In this document: piece by piece, positions 11,356 through 64,000 of the stretch | Position numbering within the stretch: position 1 is the stretch's first letter | Layout of the letters: every line of letters begins with the position of its first letter | Assembly (NCBI GenBank): GCA_030390025.1 | Contig: CM059431.1 | Coordinates: 142,354,001-142,418,000, forward strand | Reading direction: 5' to 3' | Source of the DNA: Squalus acanthias | Taxonomy: Eukaryota | DNA length: 64,000 nucleotides | Program-made: the position numbers and the translations under genes | Notes under the pieces: model-generated | Told to the model about the DNA's origin: nothing | The model's database searches: none | What the model saw: only the letters and a program-made list of their open reading frames with translations

Positions 11356-11394
11356 GATTTATATCACAGCGAGGGGCTTTACAGTGTAACAGGG

Positions 11395-22568: not shown

Positions 22569-22589
22569 TAAAAAAACACCAAAAAAATT

Positions 22590-24557: not shown

Positions 24558-25345
24558 CATCCACTTTGGAGCTAAAAAGAATAGAACCGGGTATTTTAAA
24601 AATGGTTAAAGCTAAAATTAGTTCAGGTCCAAAGACACGAGGGGGGTCCAGATTCATAGATCATTAAAATGTCATGAACAGGTACAGAAAATAATCAAAA
24701 AGGCTGATGGGATGCTGGCCTTTATATCTGGAGGAGTAGAATACAAAGGGGTAGAGGTTAAGCTGCAGCTGTACAAAAACCTAGTTAGACCACACCTGGA
24801 GTACTGTGAGCAGTTCTGGGCACCACACCTTAGGAAGGATATATTGGACTTGGAGGGAGTGCAGCGTAGATTTACCAGAATGATATCCGGACTTCAATGT
24901 TTAAGTCACGAGGAGAGATTGCACACATTGGGGTTGTCGTCCCTCGAAATTAGAAGGTTAAGGGTTGATCTTATCGAAGTTTTCAAGATATTAAGGGGAA
25001 CAGATAGGGTAAATAGAGAGCAACTATTTCTGCTGGTTGGAGATTCTAGGATTAGTGGGCATAATCAAAAAATTATGGCCAGACCTTTCAGGAGTGAAAT
25101 TTGGAAACACTTCTGCAGACAAAAGGCGTTAAAGTTTGGAACTCTCTTCCTTAAAGGGCAGTTGATGCTAGGTCAATTCTTAATTTTACATTGGAGATTG
25201 ATAGCTTTTTGTTAACCAACGGTATTAATGGATATGGATAAAAGATGGGGATGTGGAGTTAGGTCGCAGATCAGTCATGATCTCATTGAAAGTTGGAACA
25301 GTCTCGAGGAGCTCAATGGCCTACTCCTGTTCCTATGTTCCTAAT
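24558..25345 (+). mobile_element. 5'-truncated CR1 LINE with TTCCTATG-type tail; same subfamily as the satellite-donor copy at 29578
   Basis: HFG...RSLKCHEQVQKIIKKADGMLAFISGGVEYKG; ORF 24712-25215; tail ctactcctgttcctatgttccta. Confidence 0.9.
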
Positions 25346-28800: not shown

Positions 28801-28847
28801 GCGGGGGAGTTGGACTAACTAGATTGCTTTGCGAAAGAGCCGACACA

Positions 28848-29577: not shown

Positions 29578-29978
29578 CTAGGAACATAAGAGCAAGAGTA
29601 GGCCATTTGGCCCCTCGAGCCTATTGCGCCATTCAATGAGATAATGGTCGATCTGGAACCTAATTCCGTATACCCGCCTATACCCAATATAATATAAATC
29701 TGTCAATTTCTGTTTTAAAATTCACATTTACAATCCCTTCTTGGCCGATATGACCTTCCTAAGGTGTGGTGCCCAGAACGGAACACAGTACTCCAGGTGT
29801 GGCCTAACGAGGGCTTCGTATAGATGTAACATAACTTCGACCCCATGTATTCTAGTCTTCTAGATAGAACGCCCAGCATTTCATTAGTCTTTTTGATTCG
29901 TGTCTGTACCTGTCCATGAAAATTTTACCATCTATGTACATGGACCCCGAATGCTCTTTGGAACTCCACTGTTACTAG
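29578..29978 (-). mobile_element. CR1 LINE 3' fragment (internally deleted) that runs directly into the 23-bp satellite
   Basis: Tail taggaacataagagcaagagtagg. The minus strand reads [44 protein letters not shown], then [19 protein letters not shown]. Confidence 0.9.
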
Positions 29979-32900
29979 CTTCGGACCTCCACTGTTTCTA
30001 ACTTTGGACCTCCACTGTTTCTAGCTTTGGATCTTCACTGTTTCCAGCTTTGCATCTCCACTGTTTCTAGCTTTGGACCTTCACTGTTTCTAGCATTGGA
30101 ACTCCACTCTTTCTAGCTTTGGACCTTCACTGTTTCTAGCTTTAGACCTTCACAGTTTCTAGCTTTGGACCTTCACTGTTTCTAGGTTTGGACCATCACT
30201 GTTTCTAGATTTGTATCTCCACTATTTCTAGTTTTGGACCTTCACTGTTTCTAGCTTTGGACCTCGACTGTTTCTAGCTTTGCACCTCCACTCTTTCTAA
30301 CTTTGGACCTTCACTGTTTACAGATTTGGACCTTCACAGTTTCTAGCTTTGGACCTTCACTGTTTCTAGCTTTGGATCTCCACTCTTTCTAACTTTGGAC
30401 CTCCACTGATTCTGGCTTTGGATCTCCACTCTTTCTAGTTTTGGACCTCCACTGTTTCAAGCTTTGGACCTACACTGTTTCAAGCTTTGGACCTTCACTG
30501 TTTCGAGCTTTGGACCTTCACTGTTTCTAGTTTTGGACCTTCACCGTTTCTAACTTTGGAACTTCACTGTTTCTAGCTTTGGACCACCACTGTTTCAAGC
30601 TTTGGAACTTCACAGTTTCTAGCTTTGGACCTTCATTGTTTCTAGCTTTGGACCTCCGTTGTTTCTAGCTTTGGACCTTCACTGTTTCCAGCTTTGTATC
30701 TCCACTGTTTCTAGATTTGGAGCTCCACTGTTTCTAGCTTTGGAGCTCCACGGTTTCCAGCTTTGTATCTCCACTGTTTCTAACTTTGGACCTCCAATGT
30801 TTCTAGCATTCGACCTACACTTTTTCTAGCTTTGGACCACCACTGTGTCTAGCTTTGGAACTCTACTGTTTCCAGCTTTGGTCCGCCACTGTTTCTAGCT
30901 TTGGATCTCCACTGTTTCTAGCTTTGGATCTCCACTGTTTCTAGCTTTGTACATTCACTATTTATAGATTTGGACCACCACTGTTTCTAGCTTTGGATCT
31001 CCACTGTTTCTAGCTTTGGACCTTCTGTCTTTCTAGATTTGGACCTCCACTGTTTCTAGCTTTGGACATTCAATCTTTCTAGCTTTGGATCTCCACTGTT
31101 TCTAGCTTTGATCCTCCACTCTTTCTAGCTTTGGACCTTCACTGTTTCTACCTTTGGACCTCCACTGTTTCCAGCTTTGGCTCTCCTCTCTTTCTAGCTT
31201 TGGACCTTCACTCTTTCTAGCTTTGGACCTTCACTGTTTCTAGCTTTGGATCCTCACTGTTTCTAGCTTTGGACCTTCATTGTTTTAGCTTTGGACATCC
31301 ACTGTTTCTAGTATTTGACCTCCACTGTTTCTAGCTTTGGACCCTCACTGTTTCTAGCTTTGGACCTTCACTGTTTCTAGCTTTGGACCTCCAATGTTTC
31401 TAGCTTTTGACCTTCACTGTTTCCAGCTTTGTATCTCCACTGTTTCTAGCTTTGGAGCTCCACTGTTTCTAGCTTTGGACCTTCACTGTTTCCAGCATTG
31501 TATCTCCACTGCTTCTAACTTTGGACCTCCACTGTTTCTAGCATTGGACCCTCACTGTTTCTGGCTTTGGACCTCCACTGTTTCTAGCTTTGGAGCTCCA
31601 GTGTTTCTAGCTTTGGTCCACCAGAGTTTCTAGCTCTGGATCTCCACTGTTTTTTGCTTTGGATCTCCACTGTTTCTAGCTTTGTACCTTCACAGTTTCT
31701 ACCTTCGGACCTCCACTGTTTCTAGCTTTGGATCTCCACTGTTTCTAGCTTTGGACCTTCACTCTTTCTAGCTTTGGACCTCCACTGTTTCTAGCATTGG
31801 ACCTTCACTGTTTCTAGCTTTGGATCTCCAGTGTTTCTAGCTTTGGACCTCCACTCTTTCTAGCTTTGGAAATTCAGTTTCTAGCTTTGGACCTTCGCAT
31901 TTTCTAGCTTTGGCCCTCCACTGTTTCGAGCATTGGATATCCATTTTTTCTATCATTGGACATTCACTCTTCCTAGCTTTGGATCTCCACTGTTTCTAGC
32001 TTTGTCCTTCACACCTTCTAGCTTTGGACCTTCATTGTTTCTACCTTTGGACCTCCACTGTTTATTGCTTTGGATCTCCTCTCTTTCTAGTTTTGGACCT
32101 TCACTCTTTCTTGCTTTGGAACTTCACTGTTTCTAGCTTTGGATCTTCACTGTTTCTAGCTTTGGACCCTCACAGTTTCTAGCTTTGAACATCCAATGTT
32201 TCTAGCTTTGAACCTTCACAGTTTCTAGCTTTGGATCTTCACAGTTTCTAGCTTTGGACCTCCACTGTTTCCAGCTTTGGACATTCACTGTTTCTAGCTT
32301 TGGACCTTTACAGTTTCTAGCTTTGGACCTCCACTGTTTCTAGCTTTGGACCTCCACTGTGTCTAGCTTTGGACCTTCACTGTTTCGAGCTTTGGATCTT
32401 CACAGTTTCTAGCTTTGGAACTTCACTGTTTCTAGCTTTGGAACTTCACTGTTTCTAGCTTTGGACCACCACTATTTCTAGCGTTGGACCTTCACAGTTT
32501 CTAGCTTTGGACCTTCACTGTTTCTAGCTTTAGACCATCACAGTTTCTAGGTTTGGACCTTCTCTGTTTCTAGCTTTGGACATTCACTGTTAAGAGCGTT
32601 GGACCTTCACTGTTTCTAGCTTTGGACCTTCACTGTTTCCAGCTTTGTATCTCCACTGTTTCTAACTTTGGACCTCCACTGTTTCTAGCATTGGACCTTC
32701 ACTGTTTTTGGCTTTGGACCTCCACTGTTTCTAGAGTTGGAGCTCCACTGTTTCTAGCTTTGGTCCACCACAGTTTCTAGCTTTGGATCTCCACTGTTTC
32801 TAGCTTTGGACCTCCACTGTTTCTAGCATTGGACCTTCACTGTTTCTAGCTTTGGATCTCAACTGTTTCTGGCTTTGGACTTCCACTGTTTCGAGCATTG

Positions 32901-35900
32901 GATCTCCATTTTTGTCTAGCATTGGCCTTGCACTCTTTCTAGCTTTGGATCTCCACTGTTTCTAGCTTTGTCCTTCACACTTTCTAGCTTTGGACCTTCA
33001 CTGTTTCTACCATTGGACCTCCACTGTTTCTTGCTTTAGATCTCCTCTCTTTCTAGTTTTGGACCTTCATTCTTTCTTGCTGTGGAACTTCACTGTTTCT
33101 AGCTTTGGATCTTTACTGTTTCTAGCTTTGGACCTTCACAGTTTCTAGCATTGAACCTCAACTGTTTCTAGCTTTGGACCATCACAGTTTCTAGCTTTGA
33201 ATCTTCAAAGTTTCTAGCTTTGGACCTCCACTGTTTCTAGCTTTGGACCTACACTCCTTCTAGCTTTGGACATTCAATCTTTCTAGCTTTGGATCTCCAC
33301 TGTTTCTAGCTTTGATCCTCCACTGTTTCTAGCATTGGATCTCCACTGTTTCTAGCATTGGACATTCACTTTTTCTAACTTTGGATCTCCACTGTTTCTA
33401 GCTTTGGACCTTCACTCTTTCTAGCTTTGGACCTTCACTGTTTCTACCTTTGGACCTCCACTGTTTCTAACTTTGTACATTCACAGTTTCTAGCTTCGGA
33501 CCACCACTGTTTCTAGCTTTGGATCTCCACTGTTTCTAGCTTTGGACCTTCTGTCTTTCTAGATTTGGACCTCCACTGTTTCTAGCTTTGGACATTCAAT
33601 CTTTCTAGCTTTGGATCTCCACTGTTTCTAGCTTTGATCCTCCACCCTTTCTAGCTTTGGACCTTCACTGTTTCTACCTTTGGACCTCCACTGTTTCCAG
33701 ATTGGATCTCCTCTCTTTCTAGCTTTGGACCTTCACTCTTTCTAGCTTTGGACCTTCACTGTTTCTAGCTTTGGATCCTCACTGTTTCTAGCTTTGGACC
33801 TTCACTGTTTTAGCTTTGGACATCCACTGTTTCTAGTATTTGACCTCCACTGTTTCTAGCTTTGGACCTTCACTGTTTCTAGCTTTGGACCTTCGCTGTT
33901 TCTAGCTTTGGACCTCCACTGTTTCTAGCTTTTGACCTTCACTGTTTCCAGCTTTGTATCTCCACTGTTTCTAGCTTTGGAGCTCCACTGTTTCTAGCTT
34001 TGGACCTTCACTGTTTCCAGCATTGTATCTCCACTGCTTCTAAGTTTGGACCTCCACTGTTTCTAGCATTGGACCCTCACTGTTTCTGGCTTTGGACCTC
34101 CACTGTTTCTAGCTTTGGAGCTCCACTGTTTCTAGCTTTGGTCCACCAGAGTTTCTAGCTCTGGATCTCCACTGTTTCTAGCTTTGGATCTCCACTGTTT
34201 CTAGCTTTGTACCTTCACAGTTTCTAGCTTCGGACCTCCACTGTTTCTAGCTTTGGATCTCCACTGTTTATAGCTTTGGACCTTCACTCTTTCTAGCTTT
34301 GGACCTCCACTGTTTCTAGCATAGGACCTTCACTGTTTCTAGCTTTGGATCTCCAGTGTTTCTAGCTTTGGACCTCCACTCTTTCTAGCTTTGGAAATTC
34401 ACAGTTTCTAGCTTTGGACCTTCGCATTTTCTAGCTTTGGCCCTCCACTGTTTCGAGCATTGGATATCCATTTTTTCTATCATTGGACATTCACTCTTCC
34501 TAGCTTTGGATCTCCACTGTTTCTAGCTTTGTCCTTCACACTTTCTAGCTTTGGACCTTCATTGTTTCTACCTTTGGTCTACCACTGTTTATTGCTTTGG
34601 ATCTCCTCTCTTTCTAGTTTTGGACCTTCACTCTTTCTTGCTTTGGAACTTCACTGTTTCTAGCTTTGGATCTTCACTGTTTCTAGCTTTGGACCCTCAC
34701 AGTTTCTAGCTTTGAACATCCAATGTTTCTAGCTTTGAACCTTCACAGTTTCTAGCTTTGGATCTTCACAGTTTCTAGCTTTGGACCTCCACTGTTTCCA
34801 GCTTTGGACATTCACTGTTTCTAGCTTTGGACCTTTACAGTTTCTAGCTTTGGACCTCCACTGTTTCTAGCTTTGGACCTCCACTGTGTGTAGCTTTGGA
34901 TCTTCACTGTTTCGAGCTTTGGATCTTCACAGTTTCTAGCTTTGGACCTTCACTGTTTCTAGCTTTGGAACTTCACTGTTTCTAGCTTTGGACCACCACT
35001 GTTTCTAGCGTTGGACCTTCACAGTTTCTCGCTTTGGACCTTCACTGTTTCTAGCTTTAGACCGTCACAGTTTCTAGGTTTGGACCTTCACTGTTTCTAG
35101 CTTTGGACATTCACTGTTAAGAGCGTTGGACCTTCACTGTTTCTAGCTTTGGACCTTCACTGTTTCCAGCTTTGATCCTCCACTGTTTCTAACATTGGAT
35201 CTCCACTGTTTCTAGCATTGGACATTCACTTTTTCTAACTTTGGATCTCCACTGTTTCTAGCTTTGGACCTTCACTCGTTCTAGCTTTGGACCTTCACTG
35301 TTTCTACCTTTGGACCTCCACTGTTTCTAGCTTTGTACATTCACAGTTTCTAGCTTTGGACCACCACTGTTTCTAGCTTTGGATCTCCACTGTTTCTAGC
35401 TTTGGACCTTCTGTCTTCTAGATTTGGACCTCCACTGTTTCTAGCTTTGGACATTCAATCTTTCTAGCTTTGGATAACCACTGTTTCTAGCTTTGATCCT
35501 CCACTCTTTCTAGCTTTGGACCTTCACTGTTTCTACCTTTGGACCTCCACTGTTTCCAGATTGGATCTTCTCTCTTTCTAGCTTTGGACCTTCACTCTTT
35601 CTAGCTTTGGACCTTCACTCTTTCTAGTTTGGATCCTCACTGTTTCTAGCTTTGGACCTTCACTGTTTTAGCTTTGGACATCCACTGTTTCTAGTATTTG
35701 ACCTCCACTGTTTCTAGCTTTGGACCTTCACTGTTTCTAGCTTTGGACCTTCACTGTTTCTAGCTTTGGACCTCCACTGTTTCTAGCTTTTGACCTTCAC
35801 TGTTTCCAGCTTTGTATCTCCACTGCTTCTAACTTTGGACCTCCACTGTTTCTAGCATTGGACCCTCACTGTTTCTGGCTTTGGACCTCCACTGTTTCTA

Positions 35901-38900
35901 GCTTTGGAGCTCCACTGTTTCTAGCTTTGGTCCACCAGAGTTTCTAGCTCTGGATCTCCACTGTTTCTAGCTTTGGATCTCCACTGTTTCTAGCTTTGTA
36001 CCTTCACAGTTTCGAGCTTCGGACCTCCACTGTTTCTAGCTTTGGATCTCCACTGTTTATAGCTTTGGACCTTCACTCTTTCTAGCTTTGGACCTCCACT
36101 GTTTCTAGCATTGGACCTTCACTGTTTCTAGCTTTGGATCTCCAGTGTTTCTAGCTTTGGACCTCCACTCTTTCTAGCTTTGGAAATTCACAGTTTCTAG
36201 CTTTGGACCTTCGCATTTTCTAGCTTTGGCCCTCCACTGTTTCGAGCATTGGATATCCATTTTTTCTATCATTGGACATTCACTCTTCCTAGCTTTGGAT
36301 CTCCACTGTTTCTAGCTTTGTCCTTCACACTTTCTAGCTTTGGACCTTCATTGTTTCTACCTTTGGTCCTCCACTGTTTATTGCTTTGGATCTCCTCTCC
36401 TTCTAGTTTTGGACCTTCACTCTTTCTTGCTTTGGAACTTCACTGTTTCTAGCTTTGGATCTTCACTGTTTCTAGCTTTGGACCTCCACTGTTTCCAGCT
36501 TTGGACATTCACTGTTTCTAGCTTTGGACCTTTACAGTTTCTAGCTTTGGACCTCCACTGTTTCTAGCTTTGGACCTTCACTGTGTCTAGCTTTGGACCT
36601 TCACTGTTTCGAGCTTTGGATCTTCACAGTTTCTAGCTTTGGACCTTCACTGTTTCTAGCTTTGGAACTTCACTGTTTCTAGCTTTGGACCACCACTGTT
36701 TCTAGCGTTGGACCTTCACAGTTTCTCGCTTTGGACCTTCACTGTTTTTGGCTTTGGACCTCCACTGTTTCTAGCATTGGACCTTCACTGTTAAGAGCGT
36801 TGGACCTTCACTGTTTCTAGCTTTGGACCTTCACTGTTTCCAGCTTTGTATCTCCACTGTTTCTAACTTTGGACCTCCACTGTTTCTAGCATTGGACCTT
36901 CACTGTTTTTGGCTTTGGACCTCCACTGTTTCTAGATTTGGAGCTCCACTGTTTCTAGCTTTGGTCCACCACAGTTTCTAGCTTTGGATCTCCACTGTTT
37001 CTAGCTTTGGATTTCCACTGTTTCTAGCTTTGGAACTTCAGTCTTTCTAGTTTGGATCTCCACTGTTTCTAGCATTGGACCTTCACTGTTTCTAGCTTTG
37101 GATCTCAACTGTTTCTGGCTTTGGACTTCAACTGTTTCGAGCATTGGATCTCCATTTCTGTCTTGCATTGGACTTGCACTCTTTCTAGCTTTGGATCTCC
37201 ACTGTTTCTAGCTTTGTCCTTCACACTTTCTAGCTTTGGACCTTCACTGTTTCTACCATTGGACCTCCACTGTTTCTTGCTTTAGATCTCCTCTCTTTCT
37301 AGTTTTGGACCTTCACTCTTTCTTGCTGTGGAACTTCACTGTTTCTAGCTTTGGATCTCCACTGTTTATAGCTTTGGACCTTCACTCTTTCTAGCTTTGG
37401 ACCTCCACTGTTTCTAGCATAGGACCTTCACTGTTTCTAGCTTTGGATCTCCAGTGTTTCTAGCTTTGGACCTCCACTCTTTCTAGCTTTGGAAATTCAC
37501 AGTTTCTAGCTTTGGACCTTCGCATTTTCTAGCTTTGGCCCTCCACTGTTTCGAGCATTGGATATCCATTTTTTCTATCATTGGACATTCACTCTTCCTA
37601 GCTTTGGATCTCCACTGTTTCTAGCTTTGTCCTTCACACTTTCTAGCTTTGGACCTTCATTGTTTCTACCTTTGGTCTACCACTGTTTATTGCTTTGGAT
37701 CTCCTCTCTTTCTAGTTTTGGACCTTCACTCTTTCTTGCTTTGGAACTTCACTGTTTCTAGCTTTGGATCTTCACTGTTTCTAGCTTTGGACCCTCACAG
37801 TTTCTAGCTTTGAACATCCAATGTTTCTAGCTTTGAACCTTCACAGTTTCTAGCTTTGGATCTTCACAGTTTCTAGCTTTGGACCTCCACTGTTTCCAGC
37901 TTTGGACATTCACTGTTTCTAGCTTTGGACCTTTACAGTTTCTAGCTTTGGACCTCCACTGTTTCTAGCTTTGGACCTCCACTGTGTGTAGCTTTGGATC
38001 TTCACTGTTTCGAGCTTTGGATCTTCACAGTTTCTAGCTTTGGACCTTCACTGTTTCTAGCTTTGGAACTTCACTGTTTCTAGCTTTGGACCACCACTGT
38101 TTCTAGCGTTGGACCTTCACAGTTTCTCGCTTTGGACCTTCACTGTTTCTAGCTTTAGACCGTCACAGTTTCTAGGTTTGGACCTTCACTGTTTCTAGCT
38201 TTGGACATTCACTGTTAAGAGCGTTGGACCTTCACTGTTTCTAGCTTTGGACCTTCACTGTTTCCAGCTTTGATCCTCCACTGTTTCTAGCATTGGATCT
38301 CCACTGTTTCTAGCATTGGACATTCACTTTTTCTAACTTTGGATCTCCACTGTTTCTAGCTTTGGACCTTCACTCGTTCTAGCTTTGGACCTTCACTGTT
38401 TCTACCTTTGGACCTCCACTGTTTCTAGCTTTGTACATTCACAGTTTCTAGCTTCGGACCACCACTGTTTCTAGCTTTGGATCTCCACTGTTTCTAGCTT
38501 TGGACCTTCTGTCTTTCTAGATTTGGACCTCCACTGTTTCTAGCTTTGGACATTCAATCTTTCTAGCTTTGGATAACCACTGTTTCTAGCTTTGATCCTC
38601 CACTCTTTCTAGCTTTGGACCTTCACTGTTTCTACCTTTGGACCTCCACTGTTTCCAGATTGGTTCTTCTCTCTTTCTAGCTTTGGACCTTCACTCTTTC
38701 TAGCTTTGGACCTTCACTCTTTCTAGTTTGGATCCTCACTGTTTCTAGCTTTGGACCTTCACTGTTTTAGCTTTGGACATCCACTGTTTCTAGTATTTGA
38801 CCTCCACTGTTTCTAGCTTTGGACCTTCACTGTTTCTAGCTTTGGACCTTCACTGTTTCTAGCTTTGGACCTCCACTGTTTCTAGCTTTTGACCTTCACT

Positions 38901-41900
38901 GTTTCCAGCTTTGTATCTCCACTGCTTCTAACTTTGGACCTCCACTGTTTCTAGCATTGGACCCTCACTGTTTCTGGCTTTGGACCTCCACTGTTTCTAG
39001 CTTTGGAGCTCCACTGTTTCTAGCTTTGGTCCACCAGAGTTTCTAGCTCTGGATCTCCACTGTTTCTAGCTTTGGATCTCCACTGTTTCTAGCTTTGTAC
39101 CTTCACAGTTTCGAGCTTCGGACCTCCACTGTTTCTAGCTTTGGATCTCCACTGTTTATAGCTTTGGACCTTCACTCTTTCTAGCTTTGGACCTCCACTG
39201 TTTCTAGCATTGGACCTTCACTGTTTCTAGCTTTGGATCTCCAGTGTTTCTAGCTTTGGACCTCCACTCTTTCTAGCTTTGGAAATTCACAGTTTCTAGC
39301 TTTGGACCTTCGCATTTTCTAGCTTTGGCCCTCCACTGTTTCGAGCATTGGATATCCATTTTTTCTATCATTGGACATTCACTCTTCCTAGCTTTGGATC
39401 TCCACTGTTTCTAGCTTTGTCCTTCACACTTTCTAGCTTTGGACCTTCATTGTTTCTACCTTTGGTCCTCCACTGTTTATTGCTTTGGATCTCCTCTCCT
39501 TCTAGTTTTGGACCTTCACTCTTTCTTGCTTTGGAACTTCACTGTTTCTAGCTTTGGACCTCCACTGTTTCTAGCTTTGGACCATCACAGTTTCTAGCTT
39601 TGGATCTTCACAGTTTCTAGCTTTGGACCTCCACTGTTTCTAGTTTTGTACCTTCAATGTTTCTAGCTTTGGATCTTCACAGATTCTAGCTTTGGACCTC
39701 CACTGTTTCTAGCTTTGGATCTTCACTGTTTCGAGCTTTGGATCTTCACAGTTTCTAGCTTTGGACCTCCACTGTTTCTAGCTTTGGAACTTCACTGTTT
39801 CTAGCTTTGGACCACCACTGTTTCTAGCGTTGGACCTTCACAGTTTCTAGCTTTGGACATTCACTGTTTCTAGCTTTAGACCGTCACAGTTTCTAGCTTT
39901 GGACCTTCCCTGTTTCTAGCTTTGGACATTCACTGTTAAGAGCGTTGGACCTTCACTGTTTCTAGCTTTGGACCTTCACTGTTTCTAGCTTTGGACCTTC
40001 ACAGTTTCTCGCTTTGGACCTTCACTGTTTTTGGCTTTGGACCTCCACTGTTTCTAGCATTGGACCTTCACTGTTAAGAGCGTTGGACCTTCACTGTTTC
40101 TAGCTTTGGACCTTCACTGTTTCCAGCTTTGTATCTCCACTGTTTCTAACTTTGGACCTCCACTGTTTCTAGCATTGGACCTTCACTGTTTTTGGCTTTG
40201 GACTTCCACTGTTTCTAGATTTGGAGCTCCACTGTTTCTAGCTTTGGTCCACCACAGTTTCTAGCTTTGGATCTCCACTGTTTCTAGCTTTGGATTTCCA
40301 CTGTTTCTAGCTTTGGAACTTCAGTCTTTCTAGTTTGGATCTCCACTGTTTCTAGCATTGGACCTTCACTGTTTCTACCTTTGGATCTCAACTGTTTCTG
40401 GCTTTGGACTTCCACTGTTTCGAGCATTGGATCTCCATTTCTGTCTAGCATTGGACTTGCACTCTTTCTAGCTTTGGATCTCCACTGTTTCTAGCTTTGT
40501 CCTTCACACTTTCTAGCTTTGGACCTTCACTGTTTCTACCATTGGACCTCCACTGTTTCTTGCTTTAGATCTCCTCTCTTTCTAGTTTTGGACCTTCACT
40601 CTTTCTTGCTGTGGAACTTCACTGTTTCTAGCTTTGGATCTTCACTGTTTCTAGCTTTGGACCTTCACAGTTTCTAGCATTGAACCTCCACTGTTTCTAG
40701 CTTTGGACCTTCACAGTTTCTAGCATTGAACCTCCACTGTTTCTAGCTTTGGACCATCACAGTTTCTAGCTTTGGATCTTCACAGTTTCTAGCTTTGGAC
40801 CTCCACTGTTTCTAGCTTTGGACCTATACTCCTTCTAGCTTTGGACATTCAATCTTTCTAGCTTTGGATCTCCACTGTTTCTAGCTTTGATCCTCTACTG
40901 TTTCTAGCATTGGATCTCCACTGTTTCTAGCATTGGACATTCACTTTTTCTAACTTTGGATCTCCACTGTTTCTAGCTTTGGACCTTCACTCTTTCTAGC
41001 TTTGGACCTTCACTGTTTCTACCTTTGGACCTCCACTGTTTCTAGCTTTGGATCTCCTCTCATTCCAACTTTGGACGTTCACTCTTTCTAGCTTTGGACC
41101 TTCACTGTTTCCATCTTTCGATCTTCACTGTTTCTAGCTTTGGACCTCCACTGTTTCTAGCTTTGGACCATCACAGTTTCTATCTTTGGATCTTCACAGT
41201 TTCTAGCTTTGGACCTCCACTGTTTCTAGCTTTGGACATTCACTGTTTCTAGCTTTGGACCTTTACAGTTTCTAGCTTTGGACCTCCACTGTTTCTAGCT
41301 TTGGACCTCCACTGTTTCTAGTTTTGTACCTTCAATGTTTCTAGCTTTGGATCTTCACAGATTCTAGCTTTGGACCTCCACTGTTTCTAGCTTTGGATCT
41401 TCACTGTTTCGAGCTTTGGATCTTCACAGTTTCTAGCTTTGGACATCCACTGTTTCTAGCTTTGGAACTTCACTGTTTCTAGCTTTGGACCACCACTGTT
41501 TCTAGCGTTGGACCTTCACAGTTTCTAGCTTTGGACATTCACTGTTTCTAGCTTTAGACCGTCACAGTTTCTAGCTTTGGACCTTCACTGTTTCTAGCTT
41601 TGGACATTCACTGTTAAGAGCGTTGGACCTTCACTGTTTCTAGCTTTGGACCTTCACTGTTTCTAGCTTTGGACCTCCACTGTTTCTAGCTTTGGACCTT
41701 CACTGTTTCTAGCATTGGACCTTCACTGTTTCTGGCTTTGGACCTCCACTGTTTCTAGATTTGGATCTTCACTGTTTCTAGCTTTGGACCATCACAGTTT
41801 CTAGCTTTGGATCTTCACAGTTTCTAGCTTTGGACCTCCACTGTTTCTAGCTTTGGACCTATACTCCTTCTAGCTTTGGACATTCAATCTTTCTAGCTTT

Positions 41901-44900
41901 GGATCTCCACTGTTTCTAGCTTTGATCCTCTACTGTTTCTAGCATTGGATCTCCACTGTTTCTAGCATTGGACATTCACTTTTTCTAACTTTGGATCTCC
42001 ACTGTTTCTAGCTTTGGACCTTCACTCTTTCTAGCTTTGGACCTTCACTGTTTCTACCTTTGGACCTCCACTGTTTCTAGCTTTGGATCTCCTCTCATTC
42101 CAACTTTGGACGTTCACTCTTTCTAGCTTTGGACCTTCACTGTTTCCATCTTTCGATCTTCACTGTTTCTAGTTTTGGACCTCCACTGTTTCTAGCTTTG
42201 GACCATCACAGTTTCTATCTTTGGATCTTCACAGTTTCTAGCTTTGGACCTCCACTGTTTCTAGCTTTGGACATTCACTGTTTCTAGCTTTGGACCTTTA
42301 CAGTTTCTAGCTTTGGACCTCCACTGTTTCTAGCTTTGGACCTCCACTGTTTCTAGTTTTGTACCTTCAATGTTTCTAGCTTTGGATCTTCACAGATTCT
42401 AGCTTTGGACCTCCACTGTTTCTAGCTTTGGATCTTCACTGTTTCGAGCTTTGGATCTTCACAGTTTCTAGCTTTGGACATCCACTGTTTCTAGCTTTGG
42501 AACTTCACTGTTTCTAGCTTTGGACCACCACTGTTTCTAGCGTTGGACCTTCACAGTTTCTAGCTTTGGACATTCACTGTTTCTAGCTTTAGACCGTCAC
42601 AGTTTCTAGCTTTGGACCTTCACTGTTTCTAGCTTTGGACATTCACTGTTAAGAGCGTTGGACCTTCACTGTTTCTAGCTTTGGACCTTCACTGTTTCTA
42701 GCTTTGGACCTCCACTGTTTCTAGCTTTGGACCTTCACTGTTTCTAGCATTGGACCTTCACTGTTTCTGGCTTTGGACCTCCACTGTTTCTAGATTTGGA
42801 TCTTCACTGTTTCTAGCTTTGGACCTTCACAGTTTCTAGCATTGAAACTCCACTGTTTCTAGCTTTGGACCATCACAGTTTCTAGCTTTGGATCTTCACA
42901 GTTTCTAGCTTTGGACCTCCACTGTTTCTAGCTTTCGACATTCACTGTTTCTAGCTTTAGACCTTTACAGTTTCTAGCTTTGGACCGCCACTGTTTCTAG
43001 CTTTGGACCTCCACTGTTTCTAGTTTTATACCTTCACTCTTTCTAGCTTTGGATCTTCACAGTTTCTAGCTTTGGACCACCACTGTTTCTAGCTTTGGAC
43101 CTCCATTGTTTCTAGCTTTGGAAAACCATTGTTTCCAGCGATGGATCTTCACTGTTTCTAGCTTTGGACCTTCACTGTTTCTACCTTGGACCTCCACTGT
43201 TTCTAGCTTTGGATCTCATCTCTTTCCAGCTTTGGATCTTCACTGTTTCCAGCTTTGGACCTTCACAGTCTCTAGCTTTGGACCTCCACTGTTTCTAGCT
43301 TTGTTGCTCCACTGTTTCTAGCTTTGGACCTCCACTGTTTCCAGCTTTGGACTTCCATTATTTCTAGCTTTGGACCACCACTGTTTCAAGCGTTGGACCT
43401 TCACTGTTTCTAGCTTTGGATCTTCACTGTTTCTAGCTTTGGACCCTCACAGTTTCTAGCTTTGAACCTTCAATGTTTCTAGCTTTGAACCTTCACAGTT
43501 TCTAGCTTTGGATCTTCACAGTTTCTTGCTTTGGACCTCCACTGTTTCTAGCTTTGGACATTCACTGTTTCTAGCTTTGGACCTTTACAGTTTCTAGCTT
43601 TGGACCTCCACAGTTTCTAGCTTTGGACCTCCACTGTTTCTAGCTTTGGACCTTCACTGTTTCGATCTTTGGATCTTCACAGTTTCTATCTTTGGACCTC
43701 CACTGTTTCTAGCTTTGGAACTTCACTGTTTCTAGCTTTGGACCACCACTGTTTCTAGTGTTGGACCTTCACAGTTTCTAGCTTTAGACCGTCACAGTTT
43801 CTAGCTTTGGACCTTCACTGTTTCTAGCTTTGGACATTCACTGTTAAGAGCGTTGGAACTTCACTGTTTCTAGATTTGGAGCTCCACTGTTTCTAGATTT
43901 GGATCTCCACTGTTTCTAGCTTTGGTCCACCACAGTTTCTAGCATTGGACCTTCACTGTTTCTAGCTTTGGATCTCCACTGTTTCTAGCTTTGGACTTCC
44001 ACTGTTTCGAGCATTGGATCTCCATTTTTGTCTAGCATTGGGCTTTCACTCTTTCCAGCTTTGGATCTCCACTGTTTCTAGCTTTGTCCTTCACACTTTC
44101 TAGCTTTGGACCTTCACTGTTTCTACCTTTGGACCTCCACTGTTTCTTGCTTTAGATCTCCTCTCTTTCTAGTTTTGGACCTTCACTCTTTCTTGCTGTG
44201 GAACTTCACTGTTTCTAGCTTTGGATCTTCACTGTTTCTAGCTTTGGACCTTCACAGTTTGTAGCATTGAACCTCCACTGTTTCTAGCTTTGGACCATCA
44301 CAGTTTCTAGCTTTGGATCTTCATTTTCTAGCTTTGGACCTCCACTGTTTCTAGCTTTGGACCTACACTCTTTCTAGCTTTGGACATTCAATCTTTCTAG
44401 CTTTGGATCTCCACTGTTTCTAGCTTTGATCCTCCACTGTTTCTAGCATTGGATCTCCACTGTTTCTAGCATTGGACATTCACTCTTTCTAACTTTGGAT
44501 CTCCACTGTTTCTAGCTTTGGACCTTCACTCTTTCTAGCTTTGGACCTTCACTGTTTCTACCTTTGGACCTCCACTGTTTCTAGCTTTGGATCTGCTCTC
44601 TTTCCAGCTTTGGACGTTCACTCTTTCTAGCTTTGGACCTTCACTGTTTCCATCTTTGGATCTTCACTGTTTCTAGCTTTGGACCTTCAGAGTTTCTAGC
44701 TTTGAACCTCCACTGTTTCTTGCTTTGGACCTTGACAGTTTCTAGCTTTGGACCTTCACAGTTTCTAGCTTTGGACCTCCACTGTTTCTAGATTTGTTCC
44801 TCCACTGTTTCTAGCTTTGGACATTCACTGTTACTAGCTTTGGATCTTCGCAGTTTCTAGCTTTGGACCTCCACTGTTTCCAGCTTTGGACTTCCATTAT

Positions 44901-47900
44901 TTCTAGCTTTGGACCACCACTGTTTCAAGCGTTGGACCTTCACTGTTTCTAGCTTTGGACCTTCACTGTTTTAGCTTTGGACCTCCACTGTTTCTAGTAT
45001 TGGACCTCCACTGTTTCTAGCATTGGCCCTTCACTGTTTCTAGCTTTGGATCTTCACAGTTTCCAGCTTTGGACCTCCACTGTTTCTAGCTTTGGAACTC
45101 CACTGTTTCTAGCTTTGGACCACCACTGTTTCCAGCGATGGATCTTCACTGTTTCTAGCTCTGGACCTTCACTGTTTCTAGCTTTGGACCTCCACTGTTT
45201 CTAGCTTTGGACATTCACTGTTTCTAGCTTTGGACCTTTACAGTTTCTAGCTTTGGACCTCCACTGTTTCTATCTTTGGACCTCCACTGTTTCTAGCTTT
45301 GGACCTTCACTGTTTCGAGCTTTGGATCTTCACAGTTTCTATCTTTGGATCTCCACTGTTTCTAGCTTTGGAACTTCACTGTTTCTAGCTTTGGACCACC
45401 ACTGTTTCTAGTGTTGGACCTTCACAGTTTCTAGCTTTGGACCTTCACTGTTTCTAGCTTTAGACCGTCACAGTTTCTAGCTTTGGACCTTCACTGTTTC
45501 TAGCTTTGGACATTCACTGTTAAGAGCGTTGGAACTTCACTGTTTCTAGCTTTGGACCTTTTACTGTTTCTAGCTTTGGACCTCCACTGTTTCTAGCTTT
45601 GGACCTTCACTGTTTCCAGCTTTGTATCTCCACTGTTTCTAACTTTGGACCTCCACTGTTTCTAGCATTGGACCTTCACTGTTTCTGGCTTTGGACCTCC
45701 ACTATTTCTAGATTTGGAGCTCCACTGTTTCTAGCTTTGGTCCACCACAGTTTCTAGCATTGGACCTTCACTGTTTCTAGCTTTGGATCTCCACTGTTTC
45801 TAGCTTTGGACTTCCACTGTTTCGAGCATTGGATCTCCATTTTTGTCTTGCATTGGACTTTCACTCTTTCTAGCTTTGGATCTCCACTGTTTCTAGCTAT
45901 GTCCTTCACACTTTCTAGCTTTGGACCTTCACTGTTTCTACCTTTGGACCTCCACTGTTTCTTGCTTTAGATCTCCTCTCTTTCTAGTTTTGGACCTTCA
46001 CTCTTTCTTGCTGTGGGACTTCACTGTTTCTAGCTTTGGATCTTCACTGTTTCTAACTTTGGATCTTCACAGTTTCTAGCATTGAACCTCCACTGTTTCT
46101 AGCTTTGGACCATCACAGTTTCTAGCTTTGGATCTTCAGTTTCTAGCTTTGGACCTCCACTGTTTCTAGCTTTGGACCTACACTCTTTCTAGCTTTGGAC
46201 ATTCAATCTTTCTAGCTTTGGATCTCCACTGTTTCTAGCTTTGATCCTCCACTGTTTCTAGCATTGGATCTCCACTGTTTCTAGCATTGGACATTCACTC
46301 TTTCTAACTTTGGATCTCCACTGTTTCTAGCTTTGGACCTTCACTCTATCTAGCTTTGGACCTTCACTGTTTCTACCTTTGGACCTCCACTGTTTCTAGC
46401 TTTGGATCTCCTCTCTTTCCAGCTTTGGACGTTCACTCTTTCTAGCTTTGGACCTTCACTGTTTCCATCTTTGGATCTTCACTGTTTCTACATTTGGACC
46501 TTCAGAGTTTCTAGCTTTGAACCTCCACTGTTTCTAGCTTTGGACCTTGACAGTTTCTAGCTTTGGACCTTCACAGTTTCTTGCTTTGGACCTCCACTGT
46601 TTCCAGCTTTGGACTTCCATTATTTCTAGCTTTGGACCACCACTGTTTCAAGCGTTGGAACTTCACTGTTTCTAGCTTTGGACCTCCACTGTTTCCAGCT
46701 TTGGACTTCCATTATTTCTAGCTTTGGACCACCACTGTTTCAAGCGTTGGACCTTCACTGTTTCTAGCTTTGGACCTTCACTGTTTTAGCTTTGGACCTC
46801 CACTGTTTCTAGTATTGGACCTCCACTGTTTCTAGCATTGGCCCTTCACTGTTTAAGCTTTGGATCTTCACTGTTTCTAGCTTTGGACCTCCACTGTTTC
46901 TAGCTTTGGAACTCCACTCTTTCTAGCTTTGGACCACCACTGTTTCCAGCGATGGATCTTCACTGTTTCTAGCTCTGGACCTTCACTGTTTCTAGCTTTG
47001 GACCTCCACTGTTTCTAGCTTTGGATCTTTATAGTTTCCAGCGTTGGACCTTCACTGTTTCTAGCTTTGGATCTCCACTTTTTCTAGCTTTGGACCTACG
47101 CTCTTTCTAGCTTTGGACATTCAATCTTTCTAGCTTTGGATCTCCACTGTTTCTAGCTTTAATCCTCCACTGTTTCTAGCATTGGATCTCCACTGTTTCT
47201 AGCATTGGACATTCACTCTATCTAACTTTGGATCTCCACTGTTTCTAGCTTTGGTCCTTCACTCTTTCTAGCTTTGGACCTTCACTGTTTCTACCTTTGG
47301 ACCTCCACTGTTTCTAGCTTTGGATCTCCTCTCTTTCTAGCTTTGGACGTTCACTGTTTCTAGCTTTGGACCTTCAGAGTTTCTATCTTTGAACCCCCAC
47401 TGTTTCTAGTATTGGACCTCCACTGTTTCTAGCATTGGCCCTTCACTGTTTCTAGCTTTGGATTTTCACAGTTTCTAGCTTTGGACCTACACTGTTTCTA
47501 GCTTTGGAACTCCACTGTTTCTAGCTTTGGACCACCACTGTTTCCAGCGATGGATCTTCACTGTTTCCAGCTCTGGACATTCACTGTTTCTAGCTTTGGA
47601 CCTTCACTGTTTCCATCTTTGGATCTTCACTGTTTCTAGCTTTGGACCTTCAGAGTTTCTAGCTTTGAACCTCCACTGTTTCTAGCTTTGGACCTTGACA
47701 GTTTCTAGCTTTGGACCTTCACAGTTTCTAGCTTTGGACCTCCACTGTTTCTAGATTTGTTCCTCCACTGTTTCTAGCTTTGGACATTCACTGTTACTAG
47801 CTTTGGATCTTCGCAGTTTCTAGCTTTGGACCTCCGCTGTTTCCAGCTTTGGACTTCCATTATTTCTAGCTTTGGACCACCACTGTTTCAAGCGTTGGAC

Positions 47901-50900
47901 CTTCACTGTTTCTAGCTTTGGACCTTCACTGTTTTAGCTTTGGACCTCCACTGTTTCTAGTATTGGACCTCCACTGTTTCTAGCATTGGCCCTTCACTGT
48001 TTCTAGCTTTGGATCTTCACAGTTTCTAGCTTTGGACCTCCACTGTTTCTAGCTTTGGAACTCCACTGTTTCTAGCTTTGGACCACCACTGTTTCCAGCG
48101 ATGGATCTTCACTGTTTCTAGCTCTGGACCTTCACTGTTTCTAGCTTTGGAACTCCACTGTTTCTAGCTTTGGATCTTTATAGTTTCCAGCGTTGGACCT
48201 TCACTGTTTCTAGCTTTGGATCTCCACTTTTTCTAGCTTTGGACCTACGCTCTTTCTAGCTTTGGACATTCAATCTTTCTAGCTTTGGATCTCCACTGTT
48301 TCTAGCTTTAATCCTCCACTTTTTCTAGCATTGGATCTCCACTGTTTCTAGCATTGGACATTCACTCTATCTAACTTTGGATCTCCACTGTTTCTAGCTT
48401 TGGACCTTCACTCTTTCTAGCTTTAGACCTTCACTGTTTCTACCTTTGGACCTCCACTGTTTCTAGCTTTGGATCTCCTCTCTTTCTAGCTTTGGACGTT
48501 CACTCTTTCTAGCTTTGGACCTTCAGAGTTTCTAGCTTTGAACCTCCACTGTTTATAGCTTTGGACTTCCACTGTTTCGAGCATTGGATCTCCATTTTTG
48601 TCTAGCATTGGACTTTCACTCTTTCTAGCTTTGGATCTCCACTGTTTCTAGCTTTGTCCTTCACACTTTCTAGCTTTGGACCTTCACTGTTTCTACCTTT
48701 GGACCTCCACTGTTTCTTGCTTTAGATCTCCTCTCTTTCTAGTTTTGGACCTTCACTCTTTCTTGCTGTGGAACTTCACTGTTTCTAGCTTTGGATCTTC
48801 ACTGCTTCTAGCTTTGGACCTTCACAGTTTCTAGCATTGAACATCCACTGTTTCCAGCTTTGGACCATCACAGTTTCTAGCTTTGGATCTTCACAGTTTC
48901 TAGCTTTGGACCTCCACTGTTTCTAGATTTGGACCTACACTCTTTCTAGCTTTGGACATTCAATCTTTCTAGCTTTGGATCTCCACTGTTTCTAGCTTTG
49001 ATCCTCCACTTTTTCTAGCATTGGATCTCCACTGTTTCTAGCATTAGACATTCACTCTTTCTAACTTTAGATCTCCACTGTTTCTAGCTTTGGACCTTCA
49101 CACTTTCTAGCTTTGGACCTTCACTGTTTCTACCTTTGGACCACCACTGTTTCTAGCTTTGGATCTCCTCTCTTTCCAGCTTTGGACGTTCACTCTTTCT
49201 AGCTTTGGACCTTCACTGTTTCCATCTTTGGATCTTCACTGTTTCTAGCTTTGGACCTTCAGAGTTTCTAGCTTTGAACCTCCACTGTTTCTAGCTTTGG
49301 ACCTTGACAGTTTCTAGCTTTGGACCTTCACAGTTTCTAGCTTTGGACCTCCACTGTTTCTAGATTTGTTCCTCCACTGTTTCTAGCTTTGGACATTCAC
49401 TGTTACTAGATTTGGATCTTCGCAGTTTCTAGCTTTGGACCTCCACTGTTTCCAGCTTTGGACTTCCATTATTTCTAGCTTTGGACCACCACTGTTTCAA
49501 GCGTTGGACCTCCACTGTTTCTAGCTTTGGACCTTCACTGTTTTAGCTTTGGACCTCCACTGTTTCTAGTATTGGATCTCCACTGTTTCTAGCATTGGCC
49601 CTTCACTGTTTCTAGCTTTGGATCTTCACAATTTCTAGCTTTGGACCTCCACTGTTTCTAGCTTTGGAACTCCACTGTTTCTAGCTTTGGACCACCACTG
49701 TTTCCAGCGATGGATCTTCACTGTTTCTAGCTCTGGACCTTCACTGTTTCTAGCTTTGGACCTCCACTGTTTCTAGCTTTGGACCTTTATAGTTTCCAGC
49801 GTTGGACCTTCACTGTTTCTAGCTTTGGATCTCCACTTTTTCTAGCTTTGGACCTTCACTGTTTCTACCTTTGGACCTCCACTGTTTCTAGCTTTGGATC
49901 TCCTCTCTTTCTAGCTTTGGACGTTCACTCTTTCTAGCTTTGGATCTCCACTGTTTCTAGCTTTAATCCTCCACTGTTTCTAGCATTGGAGCTCCACTGT
50001 TTCTGGCATTGGACATTCACTCTCTCTAACTTTGGATCTCCACTGTTTCTAGCTTTGGACCTTCACTCTTTCTAGCTTTGGACCTTCACTGTTTCTACCT
50101 TTGGACCTCCACTGTTTCTAGCTTTGGATCTCCTCTCTTTCTAGCTTTGGACGTTCACTCTTTCTAGCTTTGGACCTTCAGAGTTTCTAGCTTTGAACCT
50201 CCACTGTTTATAGCTTTGGACTTCCACTGTTTCGAGCATTGGATCTCCATTTTTGTCTAGCATTGGACTTTCACTCTTTCTAGCTTTGGATCTCCACTGT
50301 TTCTAGCTTTGTCCTTCACACTTTCTAGCTTTGGACCTTCACTGTTTCTACCTTTGGACCTCCACTGTTTCTTGCTTTAGATCTCCTCTCTTTCTAGTTT
50401 TGGACCTTCACTCTTTCTTGCTGTGGAACTTCACTGTTTCTAGCTTTGGATCTTCACTGTTTCTAGCTTTGGACCTTCAATCTTTCTAGCTTTGAACCTT
50501 CACTGTTTCTACCTTTGGACCTCCACTGTTTCTAGCTTTGGATCTTCACTGTTTCTAGCTTTGGACCTTCACAGTTTCTAGCATTGAACCTCCACTGTTT
50601 CTAGCTTTGGACCATCACAGTTTCTAGCTTTGGATCTTCACAGTTTCTAGCTTTGGACCTCCACTGTTTCTAGATTTGGACCTACACACTTTCTAGCTTT
50701 GGACCTTCACTGTTTCTACCTTTGGACCTCCACTGTTTCTTGCTTTAGATCTCCTCTCTTTCTAGTTTTGGACCTTCACTCTTTCTAGCTTTGGACCTTC
50801 ACTGTTTCTACCTTTGGACCTCCACTGTTTCTCGCTTTGGATCTCCTCTCTTTCCAGCTTTGGACGTTCACTCTTTCTAGCTTTGGACCTTCACTGTTTC

Positions 50901-53900
50901 CATCTTTGGATCTTCACTGTTTCTAGCTTTGGACCTTCAGAGTTTCTAGCTTTGAACCTCCACTGTTTCTAGCTTTGGACCTTGACAGTTTCTAGCTTTG
51001 GACCTTCACAGTTTCTAGCTTTGGACCTCCACTGTTTCTAGATTTGTTCCTCCACTGTTTCTAGCTTTGGACATTCACTGTTACTAGCTTTGGATCTTCG
51101 CAGTTTCTAGCTTTGGACCTCCACTGTTTCCAGCTTTGGACTTCCATTATTTCTAGCTTTGGACCACCACTGTTTCAAGCGTTGGAACTTCACTGTTTCT
51201 AGCTTTGGACCTTCACTGTTTTAGCTTTGGACCTCCACTGTTTCTAATATTGGACCTCCACTGTTTCTAGCATTGGCCCTTCACTGTTTCTAGCTTTGGA
51301 TCTTCACAATTTCTAGCTTTGGACCTCCACTGTTTCTAGCTTTGGAACTCCACTGTTTCTAGCTTTGGACCACCACTGTTTCCAGCGATGGATCTTCACT
51401 GTTTCTAGCTCTGGACCTTCACTGTTTCTAGCTTTGGAGCTCCACTGTTTCTAGCTTTGGACCTTTATAGTTTCCAGCATTGGACCTTCACTGTTTCTAG
51501 CTTTGGATCTCCACTTTTTCTAGCTTTGGACCTACGCTCTTTCTAGCTTTGGACATTCAATCTTTCTAGCTTTGGATCTCCACTGTTTCTAGCTTTAATC
51601 CTCCACTGTTTCTAGCATTGGATCTCCACTGTTTCTAGCATTGGACATTCACTCTATCTAACTTTGGATCTCCACTGTTTCTAGCTTTGGACCTTCACTG
51701 TTTCTAACTTTGGACCTCCACTGTTTCTAGCTTTGGATCTCCTCTCTTTCTAGCTTTGGACGTTCACTCTTTCTAGCTTTGGACCTTCAGAGTTTCTAGC
51801 TTTGAACCTCCACTGTTTATAGCTTTGGACTTCCACTGTTTCGAGCATTGGATCTCCATTTTTGTCTAGCATTGGACTTTCACTCTTTCTAGCTTTGGAT
51901 CTCCACTGTTTCTAGCTTTGTCCTTCACACTTTCTAGCTTTGGACCTTCACTGTTTCTACCTTTGGACCTCCACTGTTTCTTGCTTTAGATCTCCTCTCT
52001 TTCTAGTTTTGGACCTTCACTCTTTCTTGCTGTGGAGCTTCACTGTTTCTAGCTTTGGACCTTCACAGTTTCTAGCATTGAACCTCCACTGTTTCTAGCT
52101 TTGGACCATCACAGTTTCTAGCTTTGGATCTTCACAGTTTCTAGCTTTGGACCTCCACTGTTTCTAGATTTGGACCTACACTCTTTCTAGCTTTGGACAT
52201 TCAATCTTGCTAGCTTTGGATCTCCACTGTTTCTAGCTTTGATCCTCCACTGTTTCTAGCATTGGATCTCCACTGTTTCTAGCATTGGACATTCACTCTT
52301 TCTAACTTTGGATCTCCACTGTTTCTAGCTTTGGACCTTCACTCTTTCTAGCTTTGGACCTTCACTGTTTCTACCTTTGGACCTCCACTGTTTCTAGCTT
52401 TGGATCTCCTCTCTTTCCAGCTTTGGACGTTCACTCTTTCTAGCTTTGGACCTTCACTGTTTCCATCTTTGGATCTTCACTGTTTCTAGCTTTGGACCTT
52501 CAGAGTTTCTAGCTTTGAACCTCCACCGTTTCTAGCTTTGGACCTTGACAGTTTCTAGCTTTGGACCTTCACAGTTTCTAGCTTTGGACCTCCACTGTTT
52601 CTAGCTTTGGACATTCACTGTTACTAGCTTTGGATCTTCGCAGTTTCTAGCTTTGGACCTCCACTGTTTCCAGCTTTGGACTTCCATTATTTCAAGCTTT
52701 GGAACACCACTGTTTCAAGCGTTGGACCTTCACTGTTTCTAGCTTTGGACCTTCACTGTTTTAGCTTTGGACCTCCACTGTTTCTAGTATTGGACCTCCA
52801 CTGTTTCTAGCATTGGCCCTTCACTGTTTCTAGCTTTGGATCTTCACAATTTCTAGCTTTGGACCTCCACTGTTTCTAGCTTTGGAACTCCACTGTTTCT
52901 AGCTTTGGACCACCACTGTTTCCAGCGATGGATCTTCACTGTTTCTAGCTCTGGACCTTCACTGTTTCTAGCTTTGGACATCCACTGTTTCTAGCTTTGG
53001 ACCATTATAGTTTCCAGCGTTGGACCTTCACTGTTTCTAGCTTTGGATCTCCACTTTTTCTAGCTTTGGACCTACGCTCTTTCTAGCTTTGGACATTCAA
53101 TCTTTCTTGCTTTGGATCTCCACTGTTTCTAGCTTTAATCCTCCACTGTTTCTAGCATTGGATCTCCACTGTTTCTAGCATTGGACATTCACTCTATCTA
53201 ACTTTGGATCTCCACTGTTTCTAGCTTTGGACCTTCACTCTTTCTAGCTTTGGACCTTCACTGTTTCTACCTTTGGACCTCCACTGTTTCTAGCTTTGGA
53301 TCTCCTCTCTTTCTAGCTTTGGACGTTCACTCTTTCTAGCTTTGGACCTTCAGAGTTTCTAGCTTTGAACCTCCACTGTTTATAGCTTTGGACTTCCACT
53401 GTTTCGAGCATTGTTTCTCCATTTTTGTCTAGCATTGGACTTTCACTCTTTCTAGCTTTGGATCTCCACTGTTTCTAGCTTTGTCCTTCACACTTTCTAG
53501 CTTTGGACCTTCACTGTTTCTACCTTTGGACCTCCACTGTTTCTTGCTTTGGTTCTCCTCTCTTTCTAGTTTTGGACCTTCACTCTTTCTTGCTTTGGAA
53601 CTTCACTGTTTCTAGCTTTGGATCTTCACTGTTTCTAGCTTTGGACCTTCACTGTTTCTAGCTTTGAACCTTCACTGTTTCTACCTTTGGACCTCCACTG
53701 TTTCTAGCTTTGGATCTCCTCTCTTTCTAGCTTTGGACGTTCACTCTTTCTAGCTTTGGACCTTCACAGTTTCTAGCTTTGAACCTCCACTGTTTCTAGC
53801 TTTGGACCTTCACTGTTTCTAGCTTTGGACCTTCACTGTTTCTAGCTTTGGACCTTCACAGTTTCTAGCTTTGGACCTCAGTGTTTCTAGCTTTGGACCT

Positions 53901-62900: not shown

Positions 62901-64000
62901 AGTTTCTAGCTTTGTACCTTCGCAGTTTCTAGCTTTGGACCTTCACTGTTTCTAGCTTTAGAACTTCACAGTTTCAGCTTTGGACCTTCGCAGTTTCTAA
63001 CTTTGGACCTCCACTCTTTCCAGCTTTGGACCTTCACTGTTTCTCGCTTTGGACCTTCACTCTTTCGAGCTTTGGAACTTCACAGTTTCTAGCTTTGGAC
63101 CTTCACTCTTTGTAGCTTTGGACCTTCACAGTTTCTAGCTTTGGACCTTCACTCTTTCTAGCTTTGGAACTCCACTGTTTCTAGCTTTGGAACTTCACTC
63201 TTTCTAGCTTTGGACTTCCACTCTTTCTAGCTTTGGAACTTCACTGTTTCTAGCTTTGGACCTTCACATTTTCTAGCTTTGGACCTCCACTGTTTCTGGC
63301 TTTCAACCTTCACTGTTTCCAGCTTTGGTCGTTCAGATTTTCTAACTTTGAACCTCCACTGTTTCTAGCTTTGGACCTTCACAGTTTCTGGCTTTCGACC
63401 TTCACAGTTTCTAGCTTTGGACCTCCACTGTTTCTAGCTTTGTTCCTCCACTGTTTTTAGCTATGGACCTTTGCAGTTTCCACCTTTGGACCTCCACTGT
63501 TTCTAGCTTTGGACCTCCACTGTTTCTAGCTTTGGACGCTCACTGTTTCTAGCTTTGGATCTTCCCAGTTTCTAGCTTTGGACCTCCACTGTTTCTAGCT
63601 TTGTTCCTCCACTGTTTTTAGCTATGGACATTCACTGTTACTATCTTTGGATCTTCGCAGTTTCTAGCTTTGGACCTCCACTCTTTCTAGCTTTGGACCT
63701 TCACAGTTTCTAGCTTTGAACCTCCAATGTTTCTAGCTTTGGACCTTCACAGTTTCTGGCTTTGGATCTTCACAGTTTCTAGCTTTGGACCTCCACTGTT
63801 TCTAGCTTTGGTCCTTCACTGTTTCTAGCTTTGGACCTTTACAGTTTCTAGCTTTGGACCTCCACTGTTTCTAGCTTTGGACCTCCACTGTTTCTAGCTT
63901 TGGACGCTCACTGTTTCTAGCTTTGGATCTTCTCAGTTTCTAGCTTTGGACCTCCACTGTTTCTAGCTTTGGACCTCCACTGTTTCTAGCTTTGGACCAC
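29956..64000. repeat. 23-bp satellite DNA array, >34 kb, roughly 1470 monomers in the window, single orientation, with higher-order structure
   Basis: Consensus CTTTGGACCTYCACTGTTTCTAG. Continues to the window end with no interspersed elements seen. Confidence 0.98.
60528..60727. other. Assembly gap (200 N)
   Basis: Run of N with the satellite in the same orientation on both sides. Confidence 0.99.

Follow-up and report, generated by a model that had tools for sequence, protein, structure and literature searches.

A 23-bp satellite array joined in register to a CR1-type LINE in Squalus acanthias, and a probable origin of its period between short direct repeats

The array and its two LINE relatives

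We analysed a stretch of 64,000 nucleotides of Squalus acanthias (assembly GCA_030390025.1, contig CM059431.1, positions 142,354,001 to 142,418,000 of the forward strand), referred to below as the window. In repeat-rich surroundings, it holds a long array of a 23-bp satellite that abuts a fragment of a CR1-type LINE, the donor copy, and a second fragment of the same subfamily, the sister copy, in which one equivalent of the satellite monomer lies between two AAAG motifs (Table 1).

Table 1. Positions in the window of the satellite array, the two CR1 fragments and the sites within the sister copy
Feature	Position	Strand	Remarks
Sister copy	24558..25345	+	CR1-type LINE fragment, decayed and 5′-truncated, with the ORF2 end, the 3′ UTR and a ATGTTCCT tail
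Five bases where seven of the eight other window CR1 copies have six	24607..24611	+	One-base loss in the sister, in the upstream arm or next to it
Upstream AAAG, candidate microhomology arm	24608..24611	+	Last base of one codon plus Lys codon
Single unexpanded monomer equivalent	24612..24634	+	18/23 to the satellite consensus
Downstream AAAG	24631..24634	+	Inside the QRDLG motif (Gln-Arg codons)
Donor copy	29579..29955	−	CR1 3′ fragment, subfamily of the sister copy, in register with the first monomer
23-bp satellite array	29956..63998	−	~1481 units, reaching the end of the window; 89% monomer identity to consensus

The array runs head-to-tail over at least 34 kb, with a 200-N gap at 60528-60727, and its far end, with any 5′ flank there, lies beyond the window. 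A consensus built from the 1471 N-free monomers reads CTAGAAACAGTGAAGGTCCAAAG in the LINE sense. Monomers match it at 89.3% of positions on average, a value that is flat along the array (0.885-0.913) and shows no gradient, and 629-641 stops per frame interrupt its 10190 codons. We found no LINE flank between 29956 and the window end, and a fixed higher-order repeat was rejected, the lag identity being flat at 0.82-0.835. At offsets of 1-5.6 kb the array repeats itself in identical runs as long as 953 bases, a pattern indicative of block duplication through unequal exchange; assembly artefacts could explain some of these runs. A 24-base monomer variant occurs at eight places between 32896 and 53409, several of them ~1.6-1.8 kb apart, and marks block duplications.

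At its near end the first monomer joins the donor LINE exactly, in register and without filler. The donor is without ~310 bases of ORF2 (sister 24862-25174), the junction lying near 29730, and further 3′ it also lacks pieces of 11 and 7 bases. Positions 24643-24861 of the sister align with 29948-29731 of the donor at 78.5% identity over 219 bases, and a second match reaches 77.3% over 97 bases. Over the 224 bases downstream of the monomer the two are 76.2% identical, and each is at most 64.7% identical to the eight other CR1 copies; in this ten-copy comparison they are mutually nearest, in a tree that leaves the sister-donor fork open. Both carry the tail ATGTTCCTA, found in none of the four other tails printed. 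The sister has CCTGTTCCTATGTTCCT at ~25325-25345 and begins within ORF2, so that it shows both a short-repeat 3′ tail and a 5′ truncation. These comparisons bear out two points of the preliminary description, namely that sister and donor share a tail type and that they belong to one subfamily, the latter supported by the mutual-nearest identity as well as by the tail. Its further token of kinship, the QVQ.IIKK coding context, is present but is not diagnostic, as a copy near 12060 that is only ~61% alike to sister or donor reads QVQNIIKR. The sister is related to the parent but is not itself the parent.

The sister's neighbour is also a 5′-truncated CR1 fragment, of a different subfamily, and the two stand head to head at 24555/24558 with ~2 bases between them. 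Twin priming was rejected for this pair because the neighbour belongs to a different subfamily (62%) and covers the same part of ORF2. On the other side, positions 25720-28845 hold a long, decayed CR1 on the plus strand, assigned to another subfamily, with a putative Cys-rich, ORF1-like start near 25720. CR1 fragments also form the closest pairs of repeats that the window holds, 810-2369 with 20988-22571 (87.5%) and 22987-23518 with 28862-29392 (91.5%).

Comparison with proteins places the element, by similarity and by motifs that we take to be typical of the clade, within CR1. At E <= 1e-30 the sister ORF2 piece matched 59 of 214 protein candidates, several of them with PF00078. Like the CR1-clade LINEs of cartilaginous fishes, it finds its relatives among skate, ray, shark and chimaera proteins, with best identities of 42-68%. 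HER1 belongs to the CR1 clade. It has been described as a LINE of sharks and rays (PMC3747384). A protein of the exact sister/donor subfamily was found neither among the 59 matches nor in the one longer candidate, and there were no shorter candidates; Pfam returned no significant match to the sister fragment, its sole match (E 0.26) being spurious. In metagenome contigs the monomer pattern gave no loci and DNA of the sister/donor subfamily was absent, only distant related loci being found, and the sister 22-mer was absent from viral contigs.

The unit and its flanking repeats within ORF2

The monomer is CR1 ORF2 coding sequence, taken from immediately before the QRDLG motif. In its common G variant it translates as KLETVEVQ, for which the score against the family columns is 15.3; the sister peptide KLKLVQVQ reaches 11.5, and none of the other 45 phase peptides exceeds 1.4. 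The satellite thus retains the coding motif better than the sister does. Because the motif fits the family in the LINE frame only (15.3 against at most 1.4), the direction of descent is from LINE to satellite, and insertion of a satellite into an unrelated LINE was rejected, the unit being in-frame LINE sequence. The spacing of the motif is kept in 28 of 30 homologous proteins. The array thus has the properties expected of a satellite derived from a transposable element: it is long and head-to-tail, its unit is homologous to the element, and the direction runs from element to satellite.

The period itself can be read in codons. The Lys codon AAG has its counterpart 23 bases on, where the third position of the Gln codon is followed by positions one and two of the Arg codon, so that the period of 23 equals eight codons minus one base. 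Since 23 is not a multiple of three, an extra unit shifts the frame, and indeed it reads VQS-stop. Given the cis-preference of LINEs, no copy that has gained units could encode a full ORF2 of its own, and dispersed intermediates with 2-10 monomers are therefore not required by the model.

In the sister, 24608-24634 consists of AAAG, CTAAAATTAGTTCAGGTCC and a second AAAG, confirming the earlier reading that the two motifs, at 24608-24611 and 24631-24634, are exactly 23 bp apart. The 18/23 monomer match claimed for this plus-strand LINE also holds against the array consensus. When every rotation of the array was compared on either strand with positions 1-29950, this site topped all matches, the runner-up scoring 16. 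A match of at least 18/23 has a probability of 1.4e-7 at a fixed site, and at most 0.19 such matches would be expected in a blind scan over all rotations; the strength of the match lies in its position, because the downstream homology fixes the site independently. At the same site the eight other CR1 copies match the monomer at only 10-14 of 23 positions, and none matches more than two of the four flanking letters. On this alignment the sister site is homologous to the point at which the array joins the LINE.

How unusual such arms are depends on the question asked. An arm of at least four bases at period 23 is present at 1.75% of breakpoints, or ~1 in 57, in 8200 bases of LINE DNA from the window. 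Over spacings of 10-60, exact repeats of at least 4 bp occur at ~197 per kb, 27 of them within 24560-24700, and repeats matching at 7/9 or better at 52 per kb. As short arms are so common, an arm may fix the period once a segment is duplicated but cannot explain the choice of site. For comparison we drew distant CR1-like loci from metagenomes, 80 being kept of 479, at 36-58% identity, with 42 distinct loci in which the site was readable. None of these 42 has a four-base arm at the register, and three have a three-base arm. With none in the eight other window copies and none in the 42 distant loci, the AAAG pair is neither generic nor common.

Whether the upstream arm is ancestral is complicated by an indel. 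The Gly (24604-6) and Leu (24612-4) codons of the sister are separated by five bases, not six (one of the eight other window copies is rearranged at this interval), and the interval from Gly to Gln codon is 23 bases where 24 are expected. The sister has therefore lost one base, either in the upstream AAAG or next to it. Should the missing base lie ahead of this AAAG, the Gly codon GGT would pair as well with the GGT in front of the downstream AAAG, and the repeat would extend to 7/9 bases (upstream ATGGTTAAAG, downstream AGGTCCAAAG), probably as a longer imperfect arm GGT-nn-AAAG. The residues at the arms are themselves conserved, Lys in 12 and Gln-Arg in 24 of 28 proteins, which raises the prior for an arm match at this register to 0.06-0.08. 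Weighing all codon pairs by the residue frequencies in the 28 proteins, the codon use of the window LINEs and assumed substitution rates of 0.08-0.2, we obtained a posterior of 0.43-0.65 for an ancestral upstream arm of at least four bases and of 0.67-0.82 for one of at least three. On the sequence alone, the upstream AAAG, which is read from a single decayed copy and at an indel, may be ancestral.

The sister is strongly altered near the site, with five mismatches in the monomer, one lost base and two changes at 24598-9. A similar picture comes from sequencing runs, of which contigs from 4 of 24 runs (three organisms) were aligned on 24540-25360 at 80% likeness. Each run contributed 18,000-36,000 aligned contigs, so this CR1 family is abundant and shared. 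In the bin 24596-24623, depth fell to 1230, 1416, 789 and 378, compared with 4,200-72,000 in the adjoining bins (~1-9%), indicating that the sister departs from its family exactly at the site. Among the letter changes listed (40 of 208), those near the site are at 24598 and 24599, and they are consistent with a Leu codon in YFLNG. In two runs, aligned contigs step back by ~40 bases over 25298-25343, where CR1 has its 3′ end, which suggests copies with a tandemly repeated tail.

How the array may have arisen

The explanation that we consider on balance probable is that a microhomology-mediated duplication at the DNA level set the period and that slippage and unequal exchange enlarged the array. 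In one CR1 copy belonging to this subfamily, the ORF2 stretch K-L-E-T-V-E-V-Q-R would have lain between direct AAAG repeats 23 bases apart. Misalignment of these arms, by replication slippage, flap re-annealing or end joining, would have created the first head-to-tail duplication, setting the period and breaking the reading frame. Slippage and unequal exchange would then have extended the dimer, at a later stage in blocks of kb size, until the array reached at least 34 kb, and the sister would represent the unexpanded state. We place this reading ahead of the others because the in-register 4-bp arm has a chance of ~1 in 57 and because arms are usual in microbial tandem duplications. In bacteria and fungi, to which these enrichment figures apply, 70% of new tandem duplications have arms of at least three bases compared with 1.6% expected, and arms are present at more than 90% of the variable loci that exist in several copy-number states (PMC13167724). 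The proposal that slippage or microhomology between the AAAG motifs set the 23-bp period, as put forward in the preliminary description, therefore stands in part: the LINE origin, the homologous single monomer and an in-register arm that is rare by chance (0.0175) favour it, but that arm is seen in one decayed copy, on an indel, and such arms are too common to account for the site. Of the predicted structure flank-arm-(core-arm)n-flank, the 3′ flank is as predicted and the 5′ flank falls outside the window. The sequence shows the homology, the register, the coding origin of the unit, the break of the frame and the block duplications; we infer an ancestral upstream arm, the use of the arms and the birth of the array at this locus.

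The first duplication of the CR1-derived unit might instead have needed little or no microhomology, arising from a staggered break with fill-in or from blunt end joining, in which case the sister's AAAG would be a coincidence of codon use or a product of its own one-base loss or substitution. Ancestors without a four-base arm take up 35-57% of the posterior, the sister has changed a great deal around the site (five mismatches, one lost base, 24598-9), and armless duplications do occur, making up 13% in microbes (PMC13167724). We nevertheless regard an armless start as unlikely, since an arm of at least three bases retains a posterior of 0.67-0.82 and the four-base match in register is both rare (0.0175) and absent from all 8 + 42 control copies.

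Somewhat more doubtful again is that the satellite originated from this subfamily at another locus and later joined the present CR1 copy at its single monomer, through homology-directed repair or recombination, a route that would itself explain the register of the junction; the donor would then not be the birthplace. This would account for the lack of a gradient towards the LINE state at the junction, where the first two monomers match the sister at 16/23, and for the flat identity to the consensus along the array (0.885-0.913); yet the join is exact and without filler, and the homology available for it amounts to only 23-27 bases. Of the explanations weighed here we give least credence, and little of it, to seeding by the reverse transcriptase, in which the cDNA end slipped back at insertion to the downstream AAAG on the RNA and recopied the unit in a telomerase-like manner, with growth at the DNA level later. 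The array does adjoin the visible donor at its 5′ end, on which side cDNA synthesis terminates, and the donor has a second discontinuity in its ~310-base loss, although decayed copies lose segments through ordinary deletion. Template slippage has been proposed for the 3′ repeats of UnaL2, but there it concerns 3′-terminal repeats at initiation and not internal sites (PMC3747384). Moreover, no 23-base step back was present among the 15 of 653 joints listed, nor a 23-base insert among the five indel rows, at a site that is poorly covered. If CR1 reverse transcriptase had seeded the array, LINE insertion would be a direct source of new satellite families.

Comparison with known systems and other tandem repeats in the window

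The favoured reading, DNA-level duplication between the arms, resembles the model of Haber and Louis (1998), in which minisatellites are born between short flanking repeats of 5-10 bp, and the Alu-derived minisatellites of Jurka and Gentles (2006), both as cited in PMC6947457. In each case the unit comes out of a retroposon segment bounded by short direct repeats, is first duplicated through slippage or unequal crossing-over, and is amplified afterwards. Here, however, the exact arm is 4 bp, short of the 5-10 bp of that model, to which the 7/9 repeat would come nearer if the lost base precedes the arm; the array extends over at least 34 kb, and the parent is CR1 coding sequence and not Alu. 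The microhomology-mediated tandem duplications (MTD) of microbes described in PMC13167724 offer a second parallel, since there too a 1x state has arms of at least 4 bp, and arms favour further gain in copy number. Those alleles range from 1x to 3x, whereas here there are ~1480 units and the 1x state is deduced from a paralogue that has diverged by ~24%.

Satellites derived from LINEs form a known class, which includes chicken HinfI (SCR1) from CR1, Phodopus PROsat and seal Pvc20 from L1, and chicken centromere repeats from CR1-C (PMC9659126, PMC6947457). Like these, the present array is a tandem repeat of LINE sequence, ORF2 included; unlike HinfI and PROsat, in which a LINE piece is part of a longer unit, its whole 23-bp unit is LINE coding sequence, with the parent element attached in register. 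A shark genome paper mentions satellites, in passages from which this 23-bp unit is absent (PMC11406177). Our literature search, which left subscription journals mostly outside its scope, found no description of the satellite, and supplementary repeat libraries could hold one. In our view the array adds a real, well-preserved case to a class and a mechanism that are both already known; the key arm is probable rather than proven. The origins of satellites are usually erased. At this locus the element of origin remains attached in register and the single-copy state survives in a paralogue, so that a standard model of repeat birth can be put to the test base by base for an array tens of kilobases long. 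As a single case, it agrees with the known mechanism and does not alter it.

Several other tandem repeats occur in the window. A composite unit made up of a LINE-like piece, a GC-rich stretch and a 55-bp minisatellite is present twice, at 5500-7045 and 10267-11727, with 70-79% identity. The second of these is preceded by a 36-bp array (9152-10267) and contains a 32-bp array (11023-11174). Two arrays that share one 40-bp unit lie at 7280-7575 and 8494-8734, with ~900 bases of other sequence between them, and a C-rich 29-bp minisatellite with strong strand skew extends over 4 kb at 15669-19818.
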